From Candidatus Shapirobacteria bacterium (GTDB taxonomy: Bacteria > Patescibacteriota > Microgenomatia > UBA12405): DNA of 64,000 bases. Location of the stretch: positions 79,914-143,913 of the forward strand of contig JBAZTV010000003.1 of NCBI GenBank assembly GCA_041661765.1, in the 5' to 3' direction. The position numbers were made by a program, and so were the translations under genes. The notes beneath the pieces were generated by a model that was not told the DNA's origin, ran no database searches, and saw nothing but the letters and a program-made list of their open reading frames with translations. Numbering within the stretch: position 1 is the first letter of the stretch; every line of letters begins with the position of its first letter. This document shows, piece after piece, positions 1,087 to 62,163 of the stretch.

Positions 1087-2724
1087 TTATTGTAACACAC
1101 TCTTTTTTTCTGATTTTCTTGGCACCACTGTATTTGGCTCATCAAACCATTCTTTTAAAATATCTCCTACAATTGGTGCCGCAACATCCGATCCTTCACC
1201 ACCTCTTTCAACTAAAACAGTAATTGAAATCTGTGGATCATCTGCCGGAGCAAAAGCTGTTAACCATGCCTGAGTATCTTTACTTCCATCACCCACTTCT
1301 GCCGTCCCGGTTTTACAAGCAATTTCAGTTTTAAAATTAAATAAAGGCCAAGCAGTTCCACCTGTTTTACAAGCCGCTTTCATTCCCTCAATCACTGTTT
1401 TTACATTTTCTTTTTTTATTTTCAAATCTTCACATTCCACTTTCGAATCTTTCAAAATACTCATTTTACATTTCTTGCCTTCATTGGCAATGATATTTGT
1501 CATTTGATTTACCTGCAATGGTGTTACACTCAAATCTCCCTGACCAATTGATAAATGAATTGTATTTCCTAAAAACCAATTCTCTCCCTTAACTTCTTTT
1601 TTCCATTTCTCATCAGGCACAATCCCCTCCAGTTCTCCAGCTAATTCCACCCCCGTTCTACTCCCATATCCATATTTTTTAGCCCAAGTGTCTATTCTTT
1701 CCAACCCCAACCTTTCTCCTAAAGTATAAAAAAAGATATCATTCGATCTTTTAAGCGCCTTCACTACATTTACCATCCCATCAGTATTTCCGCTCCAAGT
1801 TTTATAAGAATAATCACCCACTTTAAAAACACCTATATCTTCAATTTCAGTGTCTTTATTTATCACTCCACTTTCCAATCCAGCCGTCGCCATCACTATT
1901 TTAAAGACAGATCCTGGACTAAATCTTCCCGCAGTTGCTCTATTCATCAACGGTAAATTATAATTATCACTCAAATAATCTCTAATTTTATTTTGGTCAA
2001 TATCGTAAGAAAAATCATTTGCATTAAAAGACGGACTAGAAACCATAGTAATTATCTTTCCAGTTTTTGGTTCACTTATTATCACCACCGCTTTTTTACC
2101 ACCAAGCATTTTGTAAATTTTATCCTGCCAATAAGCATCTATCGATAAATTTAAGTCAGATGCCACAATTGGTTCTTGTCTTCCTAATTCTCTAACATAT
2201 TTCCCCAAAGCGTCAATTTCCACTAACCTTTTTCCATCAATTCCCCTAATTTGACAATCTAAAAATGATTCCACCCCACTTCTTCCAACCACTTCATCAT
2301 TACCTAATTTTATTCCACATTTATTTTCACTTTGGTCATTTTCATTGACTTTTCCAACATATCCAGTAATCAACGACATCGATTCTCCGTAAAGATAGGA
2401 TCTTTTTAATTCATAAGCCAAGTTTTCCTCTTCAAATTTATATCCTTGAAAATCTCCTAAACTCTCATAAATTTTATTACCTCCATCCATTCTAAAATAT
2501 TGATAAATACTTTTTACTATCACTCTCCCTTTTCTATCCAATATTGTTGTTCTAGCTGCTGGAATTTTTTTCTCCATTAATTTATTTTCCATTGCTAAAT
2601 CTTTATAATAAACACCCTTAATTACATCTAATTTAAAAATAGACACCAAAATAATCCCAAAACTTAATATCAAGCCAAATCTTAAAATCCAATATTTCCA
2701 AGAACCATCATCTATTTGATTCAT
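1087..2724 (-). CDS. mrdA: penicillin-binding protein 2 (peptidoglycan D,D-transpeptidase)
   Basis: N-terminal TM anchor. SVFK (SxxK), SGN (SxN) and KTGTA (KTG) transpeptidase motifs. 4-bp overlap with mreB. Confidence 0.85.
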   Translation of the reverse strand: MNQIDDGSWKYWILRFGLILSFGIILVSIFKLDVIKGVYYKDLAMENKLMEKKIPAARTTILDRKGRVIVKSIYQYFRMDGGNKIYESLGDFQGYKFEEENLAYELKRSYLYGESMSLITGYVGKVNENDQSENKCGIKLGNDEVVGRSGVESFLDCQIRGIDGKRLVEIDALGKYVRELGRQEPIVASDLNLSIDAYWQDKIYKMLGGKKAVVIISEPKTGKIITMVSSPSFNANDFSYDIDQNKIRDYLSDNYNLPLMNRATAGRFSPGSVFKIVMATAGLESGVINKDTEIEDIGVFKVGDYSYKTWSGNTDGMVNVVKALKRSNDIFFYTLGERLGLERIDTWAKKYGYGSRTGVELAGELEGIVPDEKWKKEVKGENWFLGNTIHLSIGQGDLSVTPLQVNQMTNIIANEGKKCKMSILKDSKVECEDLKIKKENVKTVIEGMKAACKTGGTAWPLFNFKTEIACKTGTAEVGDGSKDTQAWLTAFAPADDPQISITVLVERGGEGSDVAAPIVGDILKEWFDEPNTVVPRKSEKKSVLQ

Positions 2725-3833
2725 TCTTTCAATCCCGACACCAATTTAACTTGTTTAAGTGTTTCTCTATTTTGAATCAATTCACCACATCCTTTAACCA
2801 CCATCATTCCTGGTTCTTCTAAAACTTTAGTAAATATCTTTGTTTCACTTTCAATCAACTGTGCTAAACCTTTTATTTTTCCCCCATTTCCCACTAATAC
2901 AATTCCTCTCTTTAAAATGTCTTCCATCAATTCTGGCGGAGTTTCATCTAAAACCGTCGACACTAGTTTGACAATTTTGATCAATTCCATAGTTATTGCC
3001 TCTCTCACTTCTATTTCTGTTAATCTAATTGTTTTTGGTAAACCAGTTTCTAAGTCTCGACCTCTCACCAATGCTGTTTTTTTATCACCATCATTATTTG
3101 AAAAATTTCCAATTTCCATCTTAATTCTCTCCGCACTATTCTGACCAATCAAAATTCCATATTTCATTTTCACATAATTAACAATACTATTATCTAAATC
3201 ATCTCCAGCAGTCTTAATTCCTCGACCTACCACCACTCCCCCCATCGAAATTACACTCACTTCAGTCTTTCCCCCACCCACGTCCACAATCACCAGCCCC
3301 GAACAACTATCCACTGGCAAACCAATTCCAATCGCTGCCAAAACCACCTCTTCTAAAAGAATAACTTCCTTAGCTCCAGCATTTAAAAAAATTGATTTTA
3401 CTGCCCTTTTTTGCACCTGATTAATTGAACTTGGCACTCCCACAATTACTCTTGGTTTAAAAATTTTAGGATATTTTGATGGAATTTCATAAACCAATTT
3501 CAAATAATAAGAAATCAAACTTTCCAATGCCTCAAAATCTGAGATCACCCCATTTTTAATTGGACTCACAACTTCAATCTGCTTTGGCTCTCGATTTAAC
3601 ATCTCTTTTGCCTTAAATCCAAAAGCAATTGGACCACTTTGCTTTGTCCTTGGAGCCGATAAACCAGTCCATCTTTTCTTTTTCTGTCTAGCAATCATAG
3701 TTGGTTCATCCACAATCACTCCTCTATCCTTTAAATAAATCAAAGTATTACTACTTCCCAAATCCACTCCAATTTCCCAACTAAAATTGGATATAAATTT
3801 TTCTAATTTTTCTTTGATTCCAAATAACTCCAT
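2721..3833 (-). CDS. mreB: rod shape-determining actin homologue MreB
   Basis: Motifs GVDLGSSNTLIY, VIVGVPS and LVIVDVGGGKTEVSVIS, typical of the MreB/actin ATPase fold. Confidence 0.9.
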   Translation of the reverse strand: MELFGIKEKLEKFISNFSWEIGVDLGSSNTLIYLKDRGVIVDEPTMIARQKKKRWTGLSAPRTKQSGPIAFGFKAKEMLNREPKQIEVVSPIKNGVISDFEALESLISYYLKLVYEIPSKYPKIFKPRVIVGVPSSINQVQKRAVKSIFLNAGAKEVILLEEVVLAAIGIGLPVDSCSGLVIVDVGGGKTEVSVISMGGVVVGRGIKTAGDDLDNSIVNYVKMKYGILIGQNSAERIKMEIGNFSNNDGDKKTALVRGRDLETGLPKTIRLTEIEVREAITMELIKIVKLVSTVLDETPPELMEDILKRGIVLVGNGGKIKGLAQLIESETKIFTKVLEEPGMMVVKGCGELIQNRETLKQVKLVSGLKE

Positions 3834-3851: not shown

Positions 3852-5867
3852 ATGAAGTCCTTTATTAAGCTAATCCGTTTTTTGTTTTTAGCTCTGTTTT
3901 TTTTCACCCCTCTTATTTTCACTCAATCAAATTCTGAGCTTTTTGAATTACCAAAAATGTATTTCGTTTATATTTCAACTACACTAATAACTACCTTTCA
4001 TTTAATTAATGTTTTCCAAAAAAAAGCTCCGTTCCATCAAAAAACTTTTTTAGATATTCCTCTTTTTCTCTTTTTTATCTCCCAAGTAATTTCCACTTAT
4101 TATTCCATTGATCCACATACTTCATTTTATGGCTATTATTCTCGTCTCAACGGCGGTCTTTTGTCGCTGATTTGTTATCTGCTTCTTTATTTTATTTTAT
4201 CTGTTTATCTCAACTCCGATTTTAAAAATAAGATTATCAATTTTTCACTATTTTCGGCATTTTTAGTTTCTATTTATGCCATCACCGAACATTTTGGTAT
4301 CGATAAAAATCTATGGGTTCAAGATGTCCAATCCCGAGTTTTTTCCACTCTAGGCCAACCAAACTGGCTCGCCGCCTATCTTTGTATTTTCATTCCTTTT
4401 TCAATTTATAAATTTTTTGAATCAATAAAAATGTACGGGCGCGGCGTGACGCGCCCTTACCTGTATTTAATATTAACTTCAATTTTTTACGTCGCAATTC
4501 TTTTTACCAAATCAAAATCTGGCATCATTGCTTGTCTCATCTCTATTATCATTTATTTTACAATTTACTTTTTCCAGAATTTAAAAAATAAATCATCCTT
4601 AAGCAAAATCTCCATTTTTGCTTTAATTTTTATTTTATTAACCTTCACCATTAATAATCCTATCAAGGATTATTTTTTTTCATCTATAGAGACGCAACGC
4701 ATGGCGTCTCTACAATCTACAAATAATCCTGAGTCATCCAAAATCCTAATCACCTCTTCCGGCAACATCCGAAAAATTGTTTGGAAAGGGGCCATTGATC
4801 TTTGGAAAAAATTCCCCATTTTTGGCACTGGCGTTGAAACTTTTGCTTATTCCTATTATTGGACCCGTCCAGTCGAACATAATCTCACCTCAGAGTGGGA
4901 CTTTCTTTATAACAAAGCCCACAACGAATACATTAACTATCTCGCCACCACTGGCGCTGTCGGTTTCCTCACCTATTGTTTTGTAATCATCTCTGTTTTG
5001 TTTTTCTCCTTAAAGTCTCCCTTGTCAAAGGGAGATTTAGAGGGATTGAACCTAGTCATACTAGCCAGTTTCTCTAGCCTTTTAATAACTAATTTTGCCG
5101 GTTTTTCAGTTGTTACCACTTCACTCTTTTTTTTCCTTCTCCCCACCTTACTATTAGATGAATGCCCTACCTGCCCTGTCAAGGGAAGGTGGTCCCAATT
5201 TATTGGGACCGAAAGGGTTTTAACCATAACCACTATTATCATCAGTTTATTCTTCATCCAAAAAATAATTTACTTCTATATAGCCGACATCGCCTACAGC
5301 CAATCTGAAAAATACGATTCTCAAAACGACTACTCCACCGCTCTCTCTTTTGCTCAAGTTAGCCATCAACTAAATCCCAACGAACCACTCTACACTGACA
5401 AATTAGCCACTATCTATTCTAAAATTGCTCTAAGCACCGGCAAACAAGAATATGTCGATCAAGCCGTCATTTATTCCGATTTAACTATTAAAACCTCTCC
5501 GGCCAACATTAATTTTTGGAAACAACGTGCTCAAAATTATCTTTACATATCCAGCGTTGATACTAAATATTTCACTATTTCTATTACCGCCCTCACCAAT
5601 GCTGCTAGCCTTGCCCCCACTGATCCTAAAATTTTCTATTCCCTCGGCCAATTTTTAGAAACCGCCAACCTCACCGACCAAGCCATTCCCTATTATCAAA
5701 AAGCCATCGAACTAAAATCAAATTACGACCATGCCTATTTTGCCCTCGGTAAAATTTATTTAACCAAAAAAGAAAATAACCTAGCCAAAGAAAACCTTCA
5801 AAAAACTATTGATTATTCATACCCCACCAACATCGAAGCCCAAAAATTACTTGATCAAATTAAATAA
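3852..5867 (+). CDS. polytopic membrane protein, O-antigen ligase/Wzy_C-like, with C-terminal TPR repeats
   Basis: At least 10 predicted TM helices, then TPR-like repeats (AIPYYQKAIELKSNYDHAYFALGKIY). Contains five in-frame GC-rich palindromes (see findings). Confidence 0.6.
   Translation: MKSFIKLIRFLFLALFFFTPLIFTQSNSELFELPKMYFVYISTTLITTFHLINVFQKKAPFHQKTFLDIPLFLFFISQVISTYYSIDPHTSFYGYYSRLNGGLLSLICYLLLYFILSVYLNSDFKNKIINFSLFSAFLVSIYAITEHFGIDKNLWVQDVQSRVFSTLGQPNWLAAYLCIFIPFSIYKFFESIKMYGRGVTRPYLYLILTSIFYVAILFTKSKSGIIACLISIIIYFTIYFFQNLKNKSSLSKISIFALIFILLTFTINNPIKDYFFSSIETQRMASLQSTNNPESSKILITSSGNIRKIVWKGAIDLWKKFPIFGTGVETFAYSYYWTRPVEHNLTSEWDFLYNKAHNEYINYLATTGAVGFLTYCFVIISVLFFSLKSPLSKGDLEGLNLVILASFSSLLITNFAGFSVVTTSLFFFLLPTLLLDECPTCPVKGRWSQFIGTERVLTITTIIISLFFIQKIIYFYIADIAYSQSEKYDSQNDYSTALSFAQVSHQLNPNEPLYTDKLATIYSKIALSTGKQEYVDQAVIYSDLTIKTSPANINFWKQRAQNYLYISSVDTKYFTISITALTNAASLAPTDPKIFYSLGQFLETANLTDQAIPYYQKAIELKSNYDHAYFALGKIYLTKKENNLAKENLQKTIDYSYPTNIEAQKLLDQIK
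4437..5210. repeat. cluster of five GC-rich short palindromes/hairpins embedded in-frame in the Wzy/TPR gene (4437-4456, 4687-4712, 5016-5035, 5174-5185, 5191-5210)
   Basis: Sequences: gggcgcg-gcgtga-cgcgccc; tagagacgc-aacgcatg-gcgtctcta; tctccctt-gtca-aagggaga; ccct-gtca-aggg; ggtcccaa-ttta-ttgggacc. All stand out against AT-rich surroundings. Confidence 0.8.
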
Positions 5868-6417
5868 AATCAATTTTACTTTGCAAAAACATTTCTCCTT
5901 TAATTTCTTTATATAATTTTCCACCATCTTTTTTTATATGATCAATAAAAACTATACCATCTAAATGATCCGATTCATGTTGCCACACAATTGCTTCAAA
6001 TCCACCTAACTTTCGGTTTTTTCTGACTAATTTTTCTTCTTCAATTTCATCCCAACTCACATCAATTTCCAAAAATCTTTTTACTGTTCCAAAATATTTT
6101 GGAAAAGATAGACATCCTTCCAAAAAATCCTCTTCCTTTTTATTTTCACCAACAATTTTTGGATAAACTTTTCCGCCATAACTTTTTTCAATTTTAGGAT
6201 TAATAAAAATCAAAGGCTCTCTATTAGACAATTCTTTGCTTCCAAAAAATCTCTTACTTACTCCAATTTGAGGCGCCGCTAAACCCGCAGCATTCTCGCC
6301 ATTTTTCAATATATTTTTTAAATCATCCATTTCCTCCAGCAACCTTTCGTCTATATTTTTAATTTCTTCTGTTTTTTGTCTTAATATTCCTGCTGGATAA
6401 ATCACAATTTTTCTCAT
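5860..6417 (-). CDS. def: peptide deformylase
   Basis: Motifs GLAAPQIG, EGCLSFP and QHESDHLDG, the three PDF signature motifs. Confidence 0.9.
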   Translation of the reverse strand: MRKIVIYPAGILRQKTEEIKNIDERLLEEMDDLKNILKNGENAAGLAAPQIGVSKRFFGSKELSNREPLIFINPKIEKSYGGKVYPKIVGENKKEEDFLEGCLSFPKYFGTVKRFLEIDVSWDEIEEEKLVRKNRKLGGFEAIVWQHESDHLDGIVFIDHIKKDGGKLYKEIKGEMFLQSKIDFI

Positions 6418-6444
6418 ACGCTATTTTACCAAATAAAAATAAAG

Positions 6445-6475
6445 TCTCCCTGTCAAGGGAGATGTCCGAAGGACA
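6445..6475. promoter_or_regulatory. two adjacent hairpins in the def/fmt divergent intergenic region
   Basis: tctccct-gtca-agggaga (6445-6462), then tgtcc-gaa-ggaca (6463-6475). The first hairpin is the same motif as the intragenic copies at 5016 and 5174. Confidence 0.5.
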
Positions 6476-6503
6476 GAGGGTTTAAATTTGCTAAAATATC
6501 ATC

Positions 6504-7370
6504 ATGACCAACCTCATTTTTTTTGGTTCCTCCGAATATTCCCTAATTATTCTAAAAAAAATTCTCGAAATTAAAGATTTTAATTTAATTAGTGTTGTCA
6601 CTAAAACAGATAAAGCCGTCGGTCGTAATCAAAAAATAACAGCCAATCCTGTGGCTAATTTTGCCCACCAAAACAACATTAAACTCTATCAAGTCGAAGA
6701 ATTTACTCCCGAATTCAAATCTGAAATCCAAAATCTGAAATCTGACATATTTATCTGTGTTGCCTTCGGTCCCCCTTATTTCGATCAGGAAATGATTGAC
6801 ATTCCCAAATTCAAAATTATTAACATTCACCCCTCTCCTCTACCAAAATATCGCGGCGCAACTCCTGGTCCTTGGCAAATTATCAATGGTGAAACCAAAA
6901 CAGCTGTCTCTTTTTTCCAAATCGATTCTCTTCCTGATCATGGCCCTATCATTTCTCAAATTCCTTTCGATATTAGTCCCACCGATACCGCCACCAGTTT
7001 TTATCAAAAAGCTTTTATCATTGCCGCCAATAATCTAGAGACAGTTATTAAAAAATATATCAATAATCTGAAATCTTTAACTCCCCAAGACCACACCCAA
7101 AAAACCTATTTCCCAAAATTTACCAAAGACAATGCTCAAATCGATTGGTCTTGGGATATTTCTAAAATTGAGCGTTTTATCCGAGCTCTCAACCCTTGGC
7201 CAATTGCCTGGACATTTGTCACCAACCAACAATCACAAAAAATCAAAATGAAAATTTTATCCGCTTCCATCATTAATCAACAATTAATCCCCAACACTGT
7301 TCAAATCGAAGGTAAAAAAATCGTCAGCTGGTCCGAAATCTGTAAATATTACACTATAAATAAAAACTAA
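6504..7370 (+). CDS. fmt: methionyl-tRNA formyltransferase
   Basis: N-terminal formyltransferase fold with NIHPSPLPKYRGATP (the SLLP/HPS motif); C-terminal Fmt domain. Confidence 0.85.
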   Translation: MTNLIFFGSSEYSLIILKKILEIKDFNLISVVTKTDKAVGRNQKITANPVANFAHQNNIKLYQVEEFTPEFKSEIQNLKSDIFICVAFGPPYFDQEMIDIPKFKIINIHPSPLPKYRGATPGPWQIINGETKTAVSFFQIDSLPDHGPIISQIPFDISPTDTATSFYQKAFIIAANNLETVIKKYINNLKSLTPQDHTQKTYFPKFTKDNAQIDWSWDISKIERFIRALNPWPIAWTFVTNQQSQKIKMKILSASIINQQLIPNTVQIEGKKIVSWSEICKYYTINKN

Positions 7371-9987: not shown

Positions 9988-10012
9988 TGTTCTTATTATA
10001 TAATACCCTACT

Positions 10013-10086
10013 GCCTAAGTAGCTCAGTTGGTTAGAGCAGCTGTTTTGTAAACAGCAGGTCGTGAGTTCGAATCCCACCTTAGGCT
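10013..10086 (+). tRNA. tRNA-Thr (anticodon UGU)
   Basis: Acceptor gcctaag/cttaggc, D-arm gctcagttggttagagc, anticodon stem gctgt/acagc, loop tttgtaa, T-loop ttcgaat. The T-stem has one A-C mismatch. Confidence 0.75.
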
Positions 10087-10130
10087 CTTTTTTATTTAAC
10101 TTTTTGATACAATATCAAAGTATCAATTGT

Positions 10131-10203
10131 GCCCGGATAGCTCAGTTGGTAGAGCATCCCCTTGGTAAGGGGAAGGTCATGAATTCGAGTTTCATTCCGG
10201 GCT
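10131..10203 (+). tRNA. tRNA-Thr (anticodon GGU)
   Basis: Acceptor gcccgga/tccgggc, anticodon stem tcccc/gggga, loop ttggtaa, T-arm atgaa-ttcgagt-ttcat. Confidence 0.8.
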
Positions 10204-10247
10204 CATTTTATCTAAAAGGAGGGTATGCCCTCCGAAACTTTAGTGAA

Positions 10248-10330
10248 GGAGGGGTGCTCCGAATGGTAAGGAACTTGTTTTGAAAACAAGCGTCAGTAAT
10301 GACATGTAGGTTCGACTCCTATCCCCTCCG
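10248..10330 (+). tRNA. tRNA-Ser (anticodon UGA), with long variable arm
   Basis: Acceptor ggagggg/cccctcc, anticodon stem cttgt/acaag, loop tttgaaa, long variable arm gtcagtaatgacatg, T-loop ttcgact. Confidence 0.75.
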
Positions 10331-10544
10331 CATTATGTCTATCTTTCCATGTAATCTTTACACTATGGTTAGAAACCCCTTACCTTCCCTTGTATTTTTT
10401 CGAAAATTTCAATTTATCGTTTTGACGGCCTGTAACACACGAAATTTTAGCGAAATTCAGTTCAAATAATGCCTAAGGTGTTGGTAAATAGTGTTTATAT
10501 CAAAATAATTTTTTATAAAAATTTATTATTGAAATTTTTTAAAA

Positions 10545-10553
10545 TGTTATAAT
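10545..10553 (+). promoter_or_regulatory. extended -10 promoter (TGtTATAAT) for the TIR-like/caspase-like cassette
   Basis: tgttataat sits 35 nt upstream of ATG 10588, with a weak TTGAAA upstream. Confidence 0.4.
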
Positions 10554-10587
10554 GGAGACAATATTGATTGTTATATTTTAATAAAAA

Positions 10588-10998
10588 ATGAGTAATCCTA
10601 GAGCTTTTATTAGTTTTGATTTTGACCATAATGAAACGGAAAAATATTTATTTATTGGTCAATCTAAAAATTCCAAAACACCTTTTGATATAGAAGACTG
10701 GTCTTCTAAGTCATCTCTACCTCAAAATCAGTGGGAAAGAATTATTGAAGATAAAATCAATAAATGTAACTTAATGATAGTTTTAGTTGGAAAAAATATG
10801 GCTTCAGCTTCAGGGGTAGCAAAAGAGATCTCTTTTGCTAAAGAAAATAACGTGCCATTTTTTGGAGTTTATGTTGACGATGCAAATACTTCTAATAACT
10901 TACCGTCTGATTTAGCTAGAAACAGAACAACAAACTGGGATTGGGACAATATTGCTTCTGCTATCAAACAAATGATGGAAGAAGGAAAAAATAAATGA
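10588..10998 (+). CDS. TIR-like domain protein (DUF1863 / MTH538-like TIR)
   Basis: N-terminal AFISFDFDH (the TIR beta-A 'FISY-' strand), then LMIVLVGKNMASASGVAKEISFA..NVPFFGVYVD, which matches the TIR-like pattern [S.S.WV..EI..A...PII.V]. Confidence 0.6.
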   Translation: MSNPRAFISFDFDHNETEKYLFIGQSKNSKTPFDIEDWSSKSSLPQNQWERIIEDKINKCNLMIVLVGKNMASASGVAKEISFAKENNVPFFGVYVDDANTSNNLPSDLARNRTTNWDWDNIASAIKQMMEEGKNK

Positions 10999-11933
10999 GA
11001 AAAGCATTAATTGTTGGAATTAACGATTATAAAGATTGTCCACTTTTAGGATGTGTTAATGATGCATCTTCTCTTTCTAGTATTCTTTCAAGTAATGGTG
11101 ATGGTTCCCCAAATTTTGATGTAATGCTTAAAACTGATATAAAAAATAAATCTGAATTAAAAACTCATATAAAAGAGCTATTTGAAGGAAATGTTGAAAC
11201 AGCTCTATTTTATTTTTCTGGTCACGGTTTTTTAAATAATCTTGGTGGATATATAGTAACACCAGATTATCAACCAAACGATGAAGGTGTCTCTATGAAT
11301 GAAATATTAACTTTTGCCAACCAATCGAAAGCACAAAATAAAATTATTATATTAGATTGTTGTCATTCTGGATCATTCGGATCTCCTCCTGAACAATCCG
11401 TTAGTATTTCTCAAATTACAGAGGGTTTGACTATACTTACTGCTAGTAAAGAAAATGAATCTGCTGTTGAAGAAAACGGACATGGAATTTTTACTAATTT
11501 ATTGTTAGGTGCATTAAGAGGTGAAGCATCAGACCTAATGGGTAATATTACTCCTGGAAGTGTATATTCCTATATCGACCAAGCTTTAGGCCCATGGGAT
11601 CAAAGACCAATTTTTAAAACTAATATTACTAAATTTACACCAATAAGAAATATATCCCCATTAATTCCACTTGATATCCTTAGAAAGATAACTTTATATT
11701 TTCCTACACCTCAAGAGGAATTTAAATTAGATCCTTCTTTTGAAGATTCAGATAAAAATGCCGATCTAAATAATGTTGAAATTTTTAAAAACTTACAAAA
11801 ATTTGAGAGAAATGGATTAGTAATACCTGTTGGTGAAGATTATATGTATTATGCTGCAATGAAATCAAAATCTTGTAAATTAACAGCCTTAGGTTGGCGT
11901 TATTGGGCATTAGTAGATAAAAATAGAATTTAA
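10995..11933 (+). CDS. caspase-like (peptidase C14 / CHAT-type) protein with about 150-aa uncharacterised C-terminal domain
   Basis: ALIVGINDY...L.GCVNDA, His in FYFSGHG and Cys in IILDCCHSG: a canonical caspase His-Cys dyad in the correct order and spacing. ATGA start/stop overlap with the TIR-like gene. Confidence 0.7.
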   Translation: MRKALIVGINDYKDCPLLGCVNDASSLSSILSSNGDGSPNFDVMLKTDIKNKSELKTHIKELFEGNVETALFYFSGHGFLNNLGGYIVTPDYQPNDEGVSMNEILTFANQSKAQNKIIILDCCHSGSFGSPPEQSVSISQITEGLTILTASKENESAVEENGHGIFTNLLLGALRGEASDLMGNITPGSVYSYIDQALGPWDQRPIFKTNITKFTPIRNISPLIPLDILRKITLYFPTPQEEFKLDPSFEDSDKNADLNNVEIFKNLQKFERNGLVIPVGEDYMYYAAMKSKSCKLTALGWRYWALVDKNRI

Positions 11934-11934
11934 T

Positions 11935-13275
11935 TTATTTTATATACAATCTCTTGTTGTGCAATGTAAATTTCGTTTTTATAGCTGATAATACTTGTTG
12001 CCTCTCCTCTACTGTCCCCACTTTTAAGGTATGAACTAGATATTCTTTAACCATATTTTTATCAATATGATTAAAGGCATCATAATCTATTTCTTTTAAG
12101 TTTCCACTTATATATTCTTCATTTAAAACTTCTGTTCTAAGTCGATGAAATCTATCAATATCTTTTTTAAGTTGATGGGCTAATTCAATTTCATTTAGTT
12201 TTAATTCATCAATGTGAGCCATTAATTGTTTAATTAAATCTTCTTCAGTAATATAAGGTTCGCTACATTGGTAATCTATTGATCTAGAGCAGTGATAATA
12301 AACATGTTTTCTAGCATCACCATTTAGAAGTTTCCGATATCTCTCCTCTCCTATTACTGAAGCCCCACAAGAACTACATTTACATAAATGTTTAAATGGG
12401 AAAACATTTTTGTTCCATTCTTTAGCTGGACAAATAAGTTGATATTGAACCTTATCAAATATTTCTTTAGTAATTAATGGTTCGTGATTTCCCTTATATT
12501 TCTTACCATCAAAACTAAATTCACCATAATAAAATGGATTTTTCAAAATGGCATAGATTTTACTTAAAGCAATTGGTTTACCACTTCTGGTAGTAAATCC
12601 AATATCATCCAACCATATTTTTAATACCCTACCACTGTAACCTCTTTCTGATACTTTAGTAAACATTAGTTTTACAGTTGGTGCTCTTTCTTTATCAATC
12701 TCTACATAACTAATTCTATTTTCATTCATTATATTTATATAACCTACAGGAGCCATATTAGGTCGCCATCCAGCTTCACATTTGGCTCTAAGCCCTCTTT
12801 TTACATTAATACCCCTATTATCATTTTCTAGCTTGGCTTGAGAGCATAAAATCATTAGTAAAAACTTTTCATTTGGGTTATTGGAAAATGATTGAGAAAA
12901 AGTCCGAATGGTTTTTAATTTTCCCTGATCCATTAGATCTACTAAGGTTCCAAGATCACCTGCATTTCTGCTCAGTCTATCAGGTGCCCAAGTTAAAATG
13001 GCATCAAATTCTCCACTTCGAATATCTATTAAAAGTTTATTAAAGACTGGTCGAAGCCCTGATGATTTGGCCGAATGACTTTCTTGTCTAACTTCTTTGA
13101 TAATTAATCCATCTCTATTGGCTAAATCCTTCATTTCCTTAATCTGGGAATCGATCGACATGGCTTGTCGCTCATCAGATTCGGTTGATTTACGAGCATA
13201 AAGACAATATTTTGTTTGCTCAATTTCCTGTATCTTTCCATCTTTTTCATTATTCATGATGGAACTATACCGCAA
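11935..13275 (-). CDS. large serine recombinase (resolvase/invertase N-domain + recombinase domain + Zn-ribbon)
   Basis: CLYARKSTESDERQAMSIDSQ (catalytic Ser in YxRxST), GEFDAILTWAPDRLSRN, and C-terminal CKCSSCGA..YYHC zinc ribbon. Confidence 0.85.
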   Translation of the reverse strand: MRYSSIMNNEKDGKIQEIEQTKYCLYARKSTESDERQAMSIDSQIKEMKDLANRDGLIIKEVRQESHSAKSSGLRPVFNKLLIDIRSGEFDAILTWAPDRLSRNAGDLGTLVDLMDQGKLKTIRTFSQSFSNNPNEKFLLMILCSQAKLENDNRGINVKRGLRAKCEAGWRPNMAPVGYINIMNENRISYVEIDKERAPTVKLMFTKVSERGYSGRVLKIWLDDIGFTTRSGKPIALSKIYAILKNPFYYGEFSFDGKKYKGNHEPLITKEIFDKVQYQLICPAKEWNKNVFPFKHLCKCSSCGASVIGEERYRKLLNGDARKHVYYHCSRSIDYQCSEPYITEEDLIKQLMAHIDELKLNEIELAHQLKKDIDRFHRLRTEVLNEEYISGNLKEIDYDAFNHIDKNMVKEYLVHTLKVGTVEERQQVLSAIKTKFTLHNKRLYIK

Positions 13276-55628: not shown

Positions 55629-55645
55629 TTTTATTTTTATTGTAA

Positions 55646-55674
55646 GGGTCAGGCATGCCTGACCCTTTTTTTTT
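55646..55674. terminator. bidirectional terminator (perfect 20-bp palindrome + T9) between 55377..55628 and glyA
   Basis: gggtcaggcatgcctgaccc followed by ttttttttt; the reverse complement also works for the convergent glyA. Confidence 0.75.
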
Positions 55675-55683
55675 GTTTAATCA

Positions 55684-55712
55684 GTAGAGACGTGCCGCCG
55701 GCGCGTCTCTAC
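55684..55712. repeat. GC-rich palindrome of the TAGAGACG...CGTCTCTA family
   Basis: gtagagacg-tgccgccggcg-cgtctctac. Related copies at 4687-4712 (intragenic) and 60730-60760. Confidence 0.8.
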
Positions 55713-55728
55713 ATTAAAAAAATCAATT

Positions 55729-56898
55729 TTAAATCCCTTTTATTATCCCGGCCATCTTATTACCCAACTCCTCAAATTCTTTCTCTTTCCATCCTCGAGT
55801 TGTCATTGCTGGTGTCCCAATTCTAATTCCCGACGGTCTAAATGGACTACCTTTTTCATGTGGCACCGTATTAGCATTAACCACAATTCCCTCCTCTTCT
55901 AATTTCACTGCAACTTCTTTTCCTTTTTCCAAACCAACTTCCACTACCATCAAATGATTATCTGTTCCAAAAACTTTAATTCCATTTCTTCTCAAAGTTT
56001 CGGCCAATACTTTGGCATTTTTAATTATTTGACTAGCGTAATCTCTAAATTCTTGAGTATCTACTTCCCCAAAAGCCACCGCCAAAGCCGCAATCTGGTT
56101 TTCATGCGGACCACCTTGCATTCCCGGAAACACTGCCTTGTCAATTTTTTTAGCCAAATCTGGATCTTTTTCTAAACCTTTTTTAGTTACTCCAATTATT
56201 GCACCACGTGGACCCCTTAAGCTTTTATGAGTCGTTGAAGTCACTATATGAACATATTCATTCGGACTTGGGTGAACACCTCCCACCACTAAACCTACAA
56301 TGTGAGAAATATCAGCCACCAACCAAGCACCAACACTGTCAGCAATTTCTCCAAATCTTTTAAAATCCAAAATATATGGATAAGCTGTTGTTCCCGCCAT
56401 AATCATTTTCGGCTTTTCTTCTAAAACTAATTTTTGCAATTTATCATAATCAATTCGACCATCTTCCTCCACATCGTATTGCACACTCTCAAAAAATTTT
56501 CCCGAAAAAGAAACTTTTGGATGACCATGAGTTAAATGACCACCAGCTGAAAGTTTCAACCCACAAATTTTATCATCTCTCTCTAAAAGTGCCATTTGAA
56601 CCGCACTGTTAGCCGGACTTCCAGAATATGGTTGTACATTTAGATGCTCAACTTTTAAAACCTTCTTTCCTCTTTCAATAGCCAAATTTTCAATTTGATC
56701 CACAAATTCATTTCCTTGATAATATCTCTTTCCAGGATAACCTTCAGCGTATTTATTCGTCAAACAGCTCCCCAAAGCCATTCTTACCTCATCTGAAACA
56801 AAATTTTCGCTTGGAATTAAATGTATTAAATTTTGTTGCCTTTCTTCTTCTTTTTTAATTAAATCTCTAATTTGTTTATCTATCATAAAATAATTCAA
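55729..56898 (-). CDS. glyA: serine hydroxymethyltransferase
   Basis: Motifs NKYAEGYPGKRYY, VQPYSGSPAN and TSTTHKSLRGPRG (PLP-lysine motif). Confidence 0.9.
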   Translation of the reverse strand: MNYFMIDKQIRDLIKKEEERQQNLIHLIPSENFVSDEVRMALGSCLTNKYAEGYPGKRYYQGNEFVDQIENLAIERGKKVLKVEHLNVQPYSGSPANSAVQMALLERDDKICGLKLSAGGHLTHGHPKVSFSGKFFESVQYDVEEDGRIDYDKLQKLVLEEKPKMIMAGTTAYPYILDFKRFGEIADSVGAWLVADISHIVGLVVGGVHPSPNEYVHIVTSTTHKSLRGPRGAIIGVTKKGLEKDPDLAKKIDKAVFPGMQGGPHENQIAALAVAFGEVDTQEFRDYASQIIKNAKVLAETLRRNGIKVFGTDNHLMVVEVGLEKGKEVAVKLEEEGIVVNANTVPHEKGSPFRPSGIRIGTPAMTTRGWKEKEFEELGNKMAGIIKGI

Positions 56899-59987: not shown

Positions 59988-60713
59988 TTATTTAAATTCA
60001 AAAGTTACAGTTAATGTTTTTGAAATAGTTGAAGTTCCAGGACTTAATTCCGCCCCACCATCACCAGAAGATAAAGTTTTATAAATTGGAGAATAATTAC
60101 CGCTACCACCTTCAACCACATTAATCACTTTACCTAATTTTCTTCCGCTAGAGTTGGCAATTAACCCTGCCTTTTCTTTAGCATCAGCCATAGCACTATT
60201 ATACAAAGTCTTTTCCGTATCAGTAGTATTTTCAATCCTAAAACTTGGACCATAAATATTATTCGCTCCGCTTTTATTTAATAGATCCATTAAAGCATTT
60301 GCTTTCGACATATCTCTTAAAGTAATCTCTATTGTACTATTCACCACCCATTGATTATTTTTTGATTTATCTGTCTCCTGTTGTTCATAAACATTCACAT
60401 TTTGTGTTTGAATATCTCCCTCAACAATTCCAAAATCTTTAATTGAAATTGTCAATTCCTTAACTCTTTTGTTAACTTCATCAACTGCTTCTTCCTTTTT
60501 TTCTTTAATTACATTCACTCCGACACTAAAACTAGCCACTTCGTTTGCCTGTTTTGTCTCTGACTCTCCCATTACTACCACTGTTTCCTCCTGAAATTTT
60601 ATTTTTCCCCAACTAATATTTTTCCAAGGCAACACAAACGCTGCAATTATAATCAAAACCAAAACCACAATTCCTTTATTTTCTGTATGTTTTTTCATAA
60701 ACAATTTTAACAT
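59988..60713 (-). CDS. SIMPL/DUF541-family periplasmic protein (26-kDa immunogenic-protein-like)
   Basis: N-terminal anchor, then ...KAGLIANSSGRKLGKVINVVEGG...SPGTSTISKTLTVTFEFK, the typical DUF541 C-terminus. Confidence 0.6.
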   Translation of the reverse strand: MLKLFMKKHTENKGIVVLVLIIIAAFVLPWKNISWGKIKFQEETVVVMGESETKQANEVASFSVGVNVIKEKKEEAVDEVNKRVKELTISIKDFGIVEGDIQTQNVNVYEQQETDKSKNNQWVVNSTIEITLRDMSKANALMDLLNKSGANNIYGPSFRIENTTDTEKTLYNSAMADAKEKAGLIANSSGRKLGKVINVVEGGSGNYSPIYKTLSSGDGGAELSPGTSTISKTLTVTFEFK

Positions 60714-60729
60714 TAAAAATTATTCTTTT

Positions 60730-60760
60730 AGTAGAGACGCGCCGTCGGCGCGTCTCTACT
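60730..60760. repeat. 31-bp perfect palindrome of the TAGAGACG...CGTCTCTA family (likely bidirectional terminator for 60812..61657)
   Basis: agtagagacgcgccg-t-cggcgcgtctctact (15-bp arms). Confidence 0.8.
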
Positions 60761-61657: not shown

Positions 61658-61740
61658 ATTACTTTTGCTCGAAAGTTTTGGTTATCCGGCTTTACGGTTG
61701 CGGCACAGCCTAGGAATTTCACCTAGTTCCCCATTAATAA

Positions 61741-62163
61741 TTATTGTTTATTTTGTTTTACTGCTTCTAAAAATAAATAATCAGAAAGTCTATTAAAATA
61801 GACCAACATTTTTTTGTCAATTTTTTGCTCCCTATTCAAAGAAACCATTCGTCTTTCCACTCTTCTACAAACAGTCCTCGCCCAATTTAATTTCAATGCC
61901 TTTTTGCTTTTAAATTTCAAAAATTTATTTAAATTAAAATCTTTATCTATTTTTAAATGATCAATCTTAAATTTAACTCCACCTCCCAACTCACCCATTA
62001 TCCCACTTAAATCATCAACAATTTTTTTTTCCACTCCAATTAACTCCAAAATTGATTGCAATTCATCAATCGAACCCACTACTTCAACCAACAAATCATC
62101 CTTGTCGATTCGTTGGTTTCCGCAAGTCGTCTGCCCTTTGTCTCCAGTTTTAGTTGTTATCAT
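61741..62163 (-). CDS. PduO-type ATP:cob(I)alamin adenosyltransferase
   Basis: MITTKTGDKGQTT...VVGSIDEL..., the PduO/MMAB N-terminal signature; sits adjacent to the B12-dependent RNR. Confidence 0.7.
   Translation of the reverse strand: MITTKTGDKGQTTCGNQRIDKDDLLVEVVGSIDELQSILELIGVEKKIVDDLSGIMGELGGGVKFKIDHLKIDKDFNLNKFLKFKSKKALKLNWARTVCRRVERRMVSLNREQKIDKKMLVYFNRLSDYLFLEAVKQNKQ

Follow-up and report, generated by a model that had tools for sequence, protein, structure and literature searches.

Repetitive extragenic palindromes (REPs) are served by REP-associated tyrosine transposases (RAYTs, also called TnpA_REP), Y1 HUH enzymes related to the IS200/IS605 transposases that bind folded single-stranded REP DNA and cleave and rejoin it next to a GTAG foot. 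Other small repeats of similar appearance include fungal mitochondrial GC clusters, which are short, GC-rich and mobile hairpins of AT-rich DNA, in some cases located in frame inside genes, and Rickettsia palindromic elements (RPEs), for which we know of no RAYT link. In Proteobacteria, single-copy RAYTs flanked by cognate REPs form REPtrons, in which REP and RAYT co-evolve and the enzyme acts on folded single-stranded REP DNA (PMC3116915, PMC8266576). GTAG-tagged REPs, with the tag at one end, occur in Proteobacteria, Cyanobacteria, Chloroflexi and the Planctomycetes–Verrucomicrobia–Chlamydiae (PVC) group, usually in the gaps between unidirectional or convergent genes; others fall wholly within open reading frames (ORFs), adding residues presumably to loops or linkers, and these intragenic copies come mainly from Opitutus terrae and Rickettsia conorii, many of them in repair genes (PMC3733652). 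RAYT subclass 2.4 (Bertels group 4) comprises proteins of about 190 amino acids with NH[IFV]H, WQ and YIxNNP motifs and is associated with double-foot REPs of the form GT[AG]G/C[TC]AC, a form that could arise via central deletion in an inverted dimer; in-frame REPs have been reported inside tnpA_REP itself, and REPs also in unrelated genes (PMC6006769). Here we describe hairpins, at least two of them of this kind, inside a membrane-protein gene in a 64-kb stretch of AT-rich DNA (about 31% GC; hereafter the window) from Candidatus Shapirobacteria, a member of the Candidate Phyla Radiation (CPR, Patescibacteria).

The protein encoded by the host gene matched Pfam Wzy_C (6.5e-18) and TPR, and its orthologues in Candidatus Shapirobacteria are annotated as O-antigen ligase family proteins. 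The order mreB-pbp2 / Wzy_C-TPR gene / def / fmt was kept across all relatives read. In our reading, to which we assign a probability of roughly 0.75, this gene has gathered small GC-rich palindromic repeats in its loop-coding DNA, and the first two of its five hairpins, together with intergenic copies elsewhere in the window, are RAYT-cognate REPs.

All five hairpins are translated in frame inside the ORF (Table 1). A preliminary description of this DNA had reported five perfect, frame-keeping hairpins here; the observation was confirmed, with four of them perfect within 4433-5210 and hairpin 4 near-perfect, carrying one mismatch. Perfect GC-containing hairpins numbered 16 distinct cases in the window (two of them tRNA anticodon stems) versus 3.45 ± 1.66 in 40 dinucleotide-preserving shuffles, and four fell inside one 800-bp stretch, where the shuffle maximum was two. 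Single-stranded DNA folding z-scores of the hairpins ranged from -2.65 to -7.8. The pattern TAGAGACG-N(3-16)-CGTCTCTA matched three times in the window (4687, 55685 and 60732) versus 0.00 expected, uniting hairpin 2 with the intergenic palindromes near 55684 and 60730 in one family, as had been proposed. No Rfam family was found for any hairpin, at the gathering threshold on the window or at an E-value threshold on 4300-6600.

Table 1 Hairpins, repeats and neighbouring features of the window (positions count from its first nucleotide; arms and loops of hairpins are separated by hyphens)
Feature	Positions	Strand	Description
Host gene	3852-5867	+	ORF of 671 aa; polytopic membrane protein, O-antigen-ligase-like Wzy_C domain, C-terminal TPR repeats
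Hairpin 1; REP site 1, GGGGCG subfamily	4433-4460	+	28 nt, GTACGGGCGCGGCGTGACGCGCCCTTAC; GTACGGGCGCG-gcgtga-CGCGCCCTTAC; 7 bp perfect, 10 pairs with one mismatch; peptide MYGRGVTRPY
Hairpin 2; REP site 2, GAGACG subfamily	4686-4713	+	28 nt, aTAGAGACGCAACGCATGGCGTCTCTAC; aTAGAGACGC-aacgcatg-GCGTCTCTAC; 9 bp perfect; peptide IETQRMASLQ
Family B element (contains hairpin 3)	5012-5045	+	AAAG-TCTCCCTT-gtca-AAGGGAGA-TTTAGAGGGA; peptide KSPLSKGDLEG; conserved 3' flank ATTTAGAGG
Hairpin 3	5016-5035	+	TCTCCCTT-gtca-AAGGGAGA; 8 bp perfect; peptide SPLSKGD
Hairpin 4	5169-5190	+	ACCTGCCCT-gtca-AGGGAAGGT; 8 pairs and one G/A mismatch; peptide TCPVKGRW
Hairpin 5	5191-5210	+	GGTCCCAA-ttta-TTGGGACC; 8 bp perfect; peptide WSQFIGT
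Family B-like hairpin and small hairpin	6445-6475	+	def-fmt spacer; TCTCCCT-gtca-AGGGAGA, then directly TGTCC-gaa-GGACA; family B flank absent
ORF of 1020 aa	52289-55351	+	
Canonical terminator	55644-55667		
Intergenic double-foot REP	55684-55712	.	29 nt, GTAGAGACGTGCCGCCGGCGCGTCTCTAC; fold z-score -5.9
SHMT gene	55729-56898	-	
SIMPL/DUF541 gene	59988-60713	-	
Intergenic double-foot REP	60731-60759	.	29 nt, GTAGAGACGCGCCGTCGGCGCGTCTCTAC; fold z-score -7.8
Unknown ORF of 281 aa	60812-61657	-	
AdoCbl-II (cobalamin) riboswitch aptamer	61671-61748	-	44.5 bits; gathering score 36.5
Cob_adeno_trans gene	61741-62163	-	

Hairpins 1 and 2 and the two intergenic palindromes are built alike over 28–29 nt: GTAG forms the 5' foot, the conserved stem is GAGACG or GGGGCG, the core varies but remains self-complementary, and CTAC forms the 3' foot. 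They form 10–15 pairs, with DNA fold energies of -8.9 to -17.4 kcal/mol. The GTAG...CTAC feet are intact in both intergenic copies. Hairpin 2 has aTAG...CTAC, with GTAG in the orthologues of L081, L001 and L333 (L-numbers denote relatives' loci read at the DNA level, and P-numbers proteins), and hairpin 1 has GTAC...TTAC, deviating exactly where GTAG would be an in-frame TAG stop. From these features, the four elements classify as double-foot REPs, the type tied to RAYT/TnpA_REP subclass 2.4. Two of the four copies in the window are extragenic, and 21 GTAG...CTAC REPs were counted in 1.04 Mb of CPR loci, a set chosen around the host gene. Across 15 copies of this group (family A), 93.9% of cells in the stems were paired and six of 12 pairs changed on both sides, a covariation score reached by 0 of 500 shuffles.

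The first intergenic REP lies between convergent genes, 17 nt after the canonical terminator and immediately ahead of the SHMT stop codon; the second separates the minus-strand SIMPL/DUF541 gene from the 281-aa ORF. The earlier suggestion that these two copies are terminator-like did not hold, as neither strand has a T-tract and a terminator scan picked only 55644-55667 in this region; on this ground an intrinsic (Rho-independent) terminator was rejected for both.

RAYT genes carrying matching REPs were found in related CPR genomes. In L012, a more distant CPR relative, a RAYT-like gene (12378-13064, minus strand) stands exactly between the orthologous Wzy/TPR gene and def and contains two in-frame REPs (HVETHDRASLL and KETHDRASLQ). 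Its product has 46 homologues, several of them named RayT and one from Candidatus Shapirobacteria (P0149). The 24 homologues that were aligned show NHVH, WQ and YIKNNP, with VETxxxASL directly after the HuH motif in nearly all, and hairpin 2 is read in the same frame as the VETHxxASLQ copy within RAYT genes. In the gene for P0149 (L325, Shapirobacteria), a degenerate REP lies across the start codon and another REP is read in frame (SVETHHDASLS). A perfect REP, GTAGAGACGCCATGCATGGCGTCTCTAC (L325:10582-10609), follows 6 nt downstream of the stop; compared with the copies at site 2, it differs at 1 nt from that of L081 and L001 and at 3 nt from that of the window. The presence of a RAYT with the same REP in L325 and L012 argues that hairpins 1 and 2 are double-foot REPs of a subclass 2.4-type system present in the lineage.

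The L012 RAYT occupies the same neighbourhood that accumulates REPs in Shapirobacteria loci. Elsewhere in L012, an in-frame double-foot REP (1519-1546; YVETLHATSLP) lies inside ORF 1219-3390 (plus strand, 723 aa), which looks like the 721-aa DUF8128/DUF87/TrwB-type protein of L082; intragenic REPs in CPR therefore extend beyond the Wzy/TPR gene.

The palindrome is widespread. GTAGAGACG-N10-CGTCTCTAC was found in at least 120 stretches of GTDB species genomes, against an estimated ~9 by chance (4^-18 x 596 Gb); the matches listed come from Bacteroidota, Cyanobacteria, Chloroflexi, Acidobacteria, Ignavibacteria, Spirochaetes, Planctomycetes and others, and in 118 of the 128 GTDB copies listed the core was self-complementary at 8 or more of its 10 positions. 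The looser pattern GTAGAGACG-N(3-16)-CGTCTCTAC occurred in at least 120 stretches of IMG/VR viral contigs (35–69% GC among the matches listed, 132 of 150 of which were exactly 28 nt). When ORFs neighbouring 278 palindromes were clustered, no universal neighbour emerged and most large clusters were phage structural proteins from related contigs; the sole informative family was an IS200-like Y1/HUH protein, the RAYT cluster, matching Pfam Y1_Tnp and NCBIfam REP_Tyr_transpos (REP-associated tyrosine transposase). Two identical palindromes flank the Y1/HUH gene in L217, and in L216, L258 and L282 the palindrome lies in frame within it (VETHGRASLQ or RRDAMHRVST). Of 120 genome loci selected on the palindrome alone, seven had a RAYT homologue within the 8-kb locus, and tblastn found none in the IMG/VR viral loci L085-L204; the RAYT-less phage REPs may reflect host RAYT activity or a transfer route. 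On viral contig L116, REPs at 3195-3222 and 5052-5079 sit in short gaps between long ORFs resembling phage structural genes, and some viral copies have adjacent half-copies. Literature searches with the strings GTAGAGACG/CGTCTCTAC and the encoded peptides returned only unrelated primers or nothing, and a search on CPR plus REP returned no relevant paper.

We compared the host protein with 40 orthologues (52–91% identity; tree from gap-free columns). All five hairpin-coded peptides fell at indel-variable positions, were missing from all deep branches (orthologues of 52–58% identity) and varied in presence within the inner clade, where even sister sequences can differ. Site 1 was filled in the window, L081, L084, L082, L003, L004 and L333 and empty in L083, L001, L002 and L007. 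At site 2 the window, L081, L001, L332 and L333 carry the element, L082 and L335 have a decayed copy, and L084, L083 and L002 lack it. The loop of site 4/5 held hairpins 4 and 5 in the window, L001, L332, L333 and L334; a GTAGAGACG REP, GTAGAGACGTTGCATrCAACGTCTCTAC, in L082 and L003; a family B hairpin (described below), TCTCCCC...GGGGAGA, in L007; and nothing in L081, L084, L083 and L002. Wherever a hairpin peptide was present, the orthologue DNA was palindromic, so that the segments are not an ancient conserved amino-acid sequence, the outcome that would have spoken against lineage-specific insertion.

The expectation that such insertions sit in loops was borne out by the AlphaFold model of the host protein (mean predicted local distance difference test (pLDDT) score 79.6), which places all five in loops or turns. 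Hairpin 1 (residues 194-203) falls at the turn between helices H170-195 and H200-219, and hairpin 2 (residues 279-288) abuts, and lies mostly inside, a disordered loop (280-303, pLDDT below 50). Hairpin 3 (residues 389-395) is in loop 389-398, and hairpins 4 and 5 (residues 440-453) occupy loop 435-450 and then run three residues into helix H451-490. Together, these results support the core of the preliminary description, namely dispersed palindromic repeats inserted in frame, in loops and in particular lineages.

The orthologous genes of relatives also hold other inserts. L081:1199-1216 (P0002; also P0014) encodes an extra 15-residue insert, FKGGSSAIAEQVGLF, which the window lacks and which holds a hairpin, GTTCCGCGA-TAGCGGAAC, resembling hairpin 5 (GGTTCCGC...GCGGAACC). 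At sites 2 and 3 of the L003 gene (P0024: NLIRNWKLEIENL; a longer version in P0053), AT-rich repeats of the type TTAGAAATTGGAAATT represent a different kind of insert at the same tolerant positions in some lineages. The L012 orthologue (10010-11971) has a further insert at about residues 225-250, VIARSIQATKQSQRDCHGLRPRNDV, which, judged from the peptide, looks like the translation of another palindromic repeat family.

Sites 1 and 2 have each changed among relatives. Across orthologues, site 2 holds three intact REP variants that differ from one another, besides two decayed copies: a variant ...CGCCACGCATGGCG... in L081 and L001; ...CGCCCCGCGGGGCG... in L333, identical to the REP in that locus's own def-fmt spacer; GTAGGGGCGAGGCATGCCTCGCCCCTAa in L332, identical to the spacer REP of L084 and with near-identical copies in L081 and L333; and AT-decayed remnants in L082 and L335. 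That the intact REPs at one site vary and match spacer copies points to replacement or conversion by other REP copies, beyond vertical descent. At site 1, the foot was GTAC or GTAT in every orthologue read at the DNA level, the 3' arm in L082, L084 and L004 keeps the complement of GTAG, and the cores vary between orthologues yet remain self-complementary. The GTAC/GTAT foot reads as a clear mark of selection for an open frame.

Hairpins 3, 4 and 5 behave like the first two in being translated, patchy and placed in loops. Hairpin 3 belongs to a second dispersed hairpin family (family B), with the consensus AAAG-TCTCCCyT-loop-ArGGGAGA-TTTAGAGG. Copies with the same flank occur at L001:277, at L007:11284 (inside the orthologous gene, at site 4) and at L080:1478, and seven matches were found in six stretches from five IMG/VR contigs (36–57% GC); in these viral loci family B had no Rfam match at an E-value threshold, and no RAYT was found. 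Its hairpin had also been said to recur near def and fmt, and indeed TCTCCCT-gtca-AGGGAGA stands at 6445-6462 in the def-fmt spacer. In L081, L084, L007, L332, L333 and L335 this spacer holds double-foot REPs, followed in the first three by a CTCCC/GGGAG hairpin. Hairpins 4 and 5 form one composite insert, seen only at site 4/5. The former is invariant in the window, L001, L332, L333 and L334; in the latter the outer GGTyCC/GGrACC is conserved and the interior is altered on both arms between orthologues, three of eight pairs changing on both sides with 89.7% of cells paired (five orthologues), to give the peptides WSQFIGT, WFRNSGT, WFRSSGT, WFRFIGT and WAAIWRT.

These observations suggest a history. 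A RAYT in the lineage would have seeded and replaced REP copies; the survivors would be only those insertions that kept the frame and landed in tolerant loops; and homologous recombination between lineages would then have shuffled the filled alleles. A more speculative extension, which we consider doubtful, is that the exposed loops of this envelope glycosyltransferase-like protein form a hot spot for the exchange of REP cores or entire REPs through RAYT-type cleavage and rejoining at both feet, which would make REP turnover a loop-diversifying mechanism for a surface-related protein of CPR bacteria, with phage-borne 28-nt REPs carrying variants between hosts.

Several points weigh against RAYT-driven insertion. 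The 64-kb window has no RAYT gene (best tblastn E = 2.4), and to our knowledge no system has yet provided an in vivo demonstration of REP mobility driven by a RAYT. The mechanisms of REP dissemination are themselves poorly understood (PMC8266576). Among the orthologue DNA aligned there is no clean filled/empty pair, the flanks differing besides the insert. Filled orthologues exceed empty ones by a net 15 nt at site 1 and again at site 2, where the palindrome has 28 nt, and by about 18 nt at site 3; with the flanks diverged or recombined, no insertion boundary, target site or duplication could be read from the alignment. A 28-nt unit alone cannot preserve the reading frame. Hairpins 3, 4 and 5 have no GT[AG]G/C[TC]AC foot in canonical orientation (hairpin 4 has CTAC...GTGG, the inverse arrangement of feet) and are therefore not classed as double-foot REPs. 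The 1.9 Mb of family A loci contained no family B copy. In 1.04 Mb of CPR loci neither hairpin 4 nor hairpin 5 was found anywhere else, and the hairpin 4 motif had 0 matches in viral contigs; on this evidence, membership in dispersed families is demonstrable for hairpins 1–3 only. Flanks often change along with the insert in both protein and DNA alignments, so that inter-lineage recombination also spreads filled alleles, and much of the orthologue patchiness may come from recombination or allele exchange instead of transposition.

This last point leads to the alternative that survives best, which we consider possible, if rather unlikely: the hairpins are old, inert insertions and their patchiness comes solely from recombination between Shapirobacteria lineages (a mosaic gene) and decay, with no ongoing REP mobility or RAYT action. 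The differing flanks of filled and empty alleles fit it, as do the segment KIHFDKSNKLYGRIMIRPY of P0004/P0005 type in P0017, the sister of P0020, the decayed site-2 copies of L082 and L335, and the RAYT-free window. Against it stand the three intact REP variants at site 2, the presence of different families in the same loop, the identity of the intragenic L333 copy with its own intergenic copy and that of the L332 site-2 copy with a def-fmt spacer REP found elsewhere. Site-2 variants identical to intergenic copies require replacement or conversion, and not only vertical descent with allele exchange.

We regard it as improbable that the hairpins are functional nucleic-acid structures kept by selection (mRNA stabilizers, pause or attenuation signals, or protein-binding sites) rather than passengers. 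Stems that covary as the peptides change, as in hairpin 5 with its five peptides and in family A, would be expected of such structures, and REPs have published roles in mRNA stability and DNA topology (PMC3733652); covariation among repeat copies is, however, also expected from copy replacement. Moreover, each hairpin is missing altogether from many close orthologues, and the gene therefore needs none of them; copies that have decayed live on as ordinary coding sequence, and Rfam gave no match.

That the elements belong to the RPE family, or are its direct relatives, is very improbable. The preliminary description had called them RPE-like: the in-frame intragenic behaviour is indeed shared, and the RPE-4 and RPE-6 of R. 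conorii have been treated as CGTC-tagged REPs (PMC3733652), but RPE-1-type elements are longer and Rickettsia REPs are CGTC-tagged at one end, whereas the elements here are of 20–29 nt, and the REPs among them bear a foot (GTAG/CTAC) at each end and are linked to RAYT subclass 2.4. RPE membership was rejected because tags, length and lineage all differ (a separation drawn from descriptions of RPEs, not from an RPE consensus); with the GTAG/CTAC feet the proper label is REP, and RPE remains an analogy only. Miniature inverted-repeat transposable elements (MITEs) consist of terminal inverted repeats flanking a non-palindromic body of 70–300 bp, with target-site duplications, and were likewise rejected: the elements here are 20–34 nt and wholly palindromic, with no duplication visible at filled sites. 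Chance, composition or assembly artefact, for which only the small size of each hairpin speaks, is refuted by the shuffle controls (counts, folding and pattern matches) and by identical sequences in independent assemblies (NCBI, JGI, ENA and Logan).

The window has other features besides the repeats. The AdoCbl-II aptamer lies between the Cob_adeno_trans gene and the 281-aa ORF, after which comes the second intergenic REP. The 1020-aa ORF had no Pfam match at E <= 0.001, and about 280 bp of sequence that also appears to be coding separates it from the terminator at 55644. The GC skew of the window is strongly negative (-0.3 to -0.5) at 1–10 kb and 38–64 kb and positive (about +0.1 to +0.17) at about 20–36 kb, the region of large plus-strand ORFs (1416, 674, 962 and 717 aa); this stretch could reflect strand bias, an inversion or an acquired segment.

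Reading the hairpins as RAYT-cognate REPs and other repeats taken up by the gene extends REP/RAYT biology to the CPR. As CPR genomes are about 1 Mb with very short spacers, repeats have few neutral landing places, and the locus offers a compact natural example of how coding regions absorb them, in loops and in TAG-free frames or with a mutated foot, followed by replacement or decay. For annotation, VETxxxASLQ, RRDxxxxVST and SPLSKGDLEG in CPR or metagenomic proteins should be taken as translated repeats, not as conserved motifs.

Among known systems, fungal mitochondrial GC clusters differ in being organellar, sequence-unrelated and without a RAYT. Like Rickettsia RPEs, the elements are dispersed palindromic repeats tolerated in frame inside protein genes; they differ from them in sequence family and lineage, Rickettsia REPs being CGTC-tagged and RPE-1 longer (PMC3733652). 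REPINs and REPtrons are matched in that a RAYT gene is flanked by its REPs, here in CPR relatives, whereas in Proteobacteria a REP usually has one foot and is imperfect or bulged, and is often one of an inverted doublet, and ours are single perfect two-footed palindromes. As with the GTAG REPs (PMC3733652), the intergenic copies of the window lie between convergent or unidirectional genes; in contrast to them, the elements here are tagged at both ends and found in a reduced CPR genome, with an envelope protein as the target. The closest likeness is to the REPs of subclass 2.4, with two feet on one long palindrome and RAYTs with matching motifs in related CPR; the published range of that subclass covers Cyanobacteria, Bacteroidetes and scattered phyla, with no mention of CPR or Patescibacteria (PMC6006769), and here one host gene carries two REPs and three other hairpins in a window without a RAYT. 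In-frame intragenic REPs have already been described (PMC3733652, PMC6006769), and the locus therefore adds a new lineage and a clear example but reveals no new mechanism. What is new is the CPR host lineage, the density of hairpins in one gene, the evidence of REP turnover at a fixed intragenic site and the stop-avoiding mutation of the foot.

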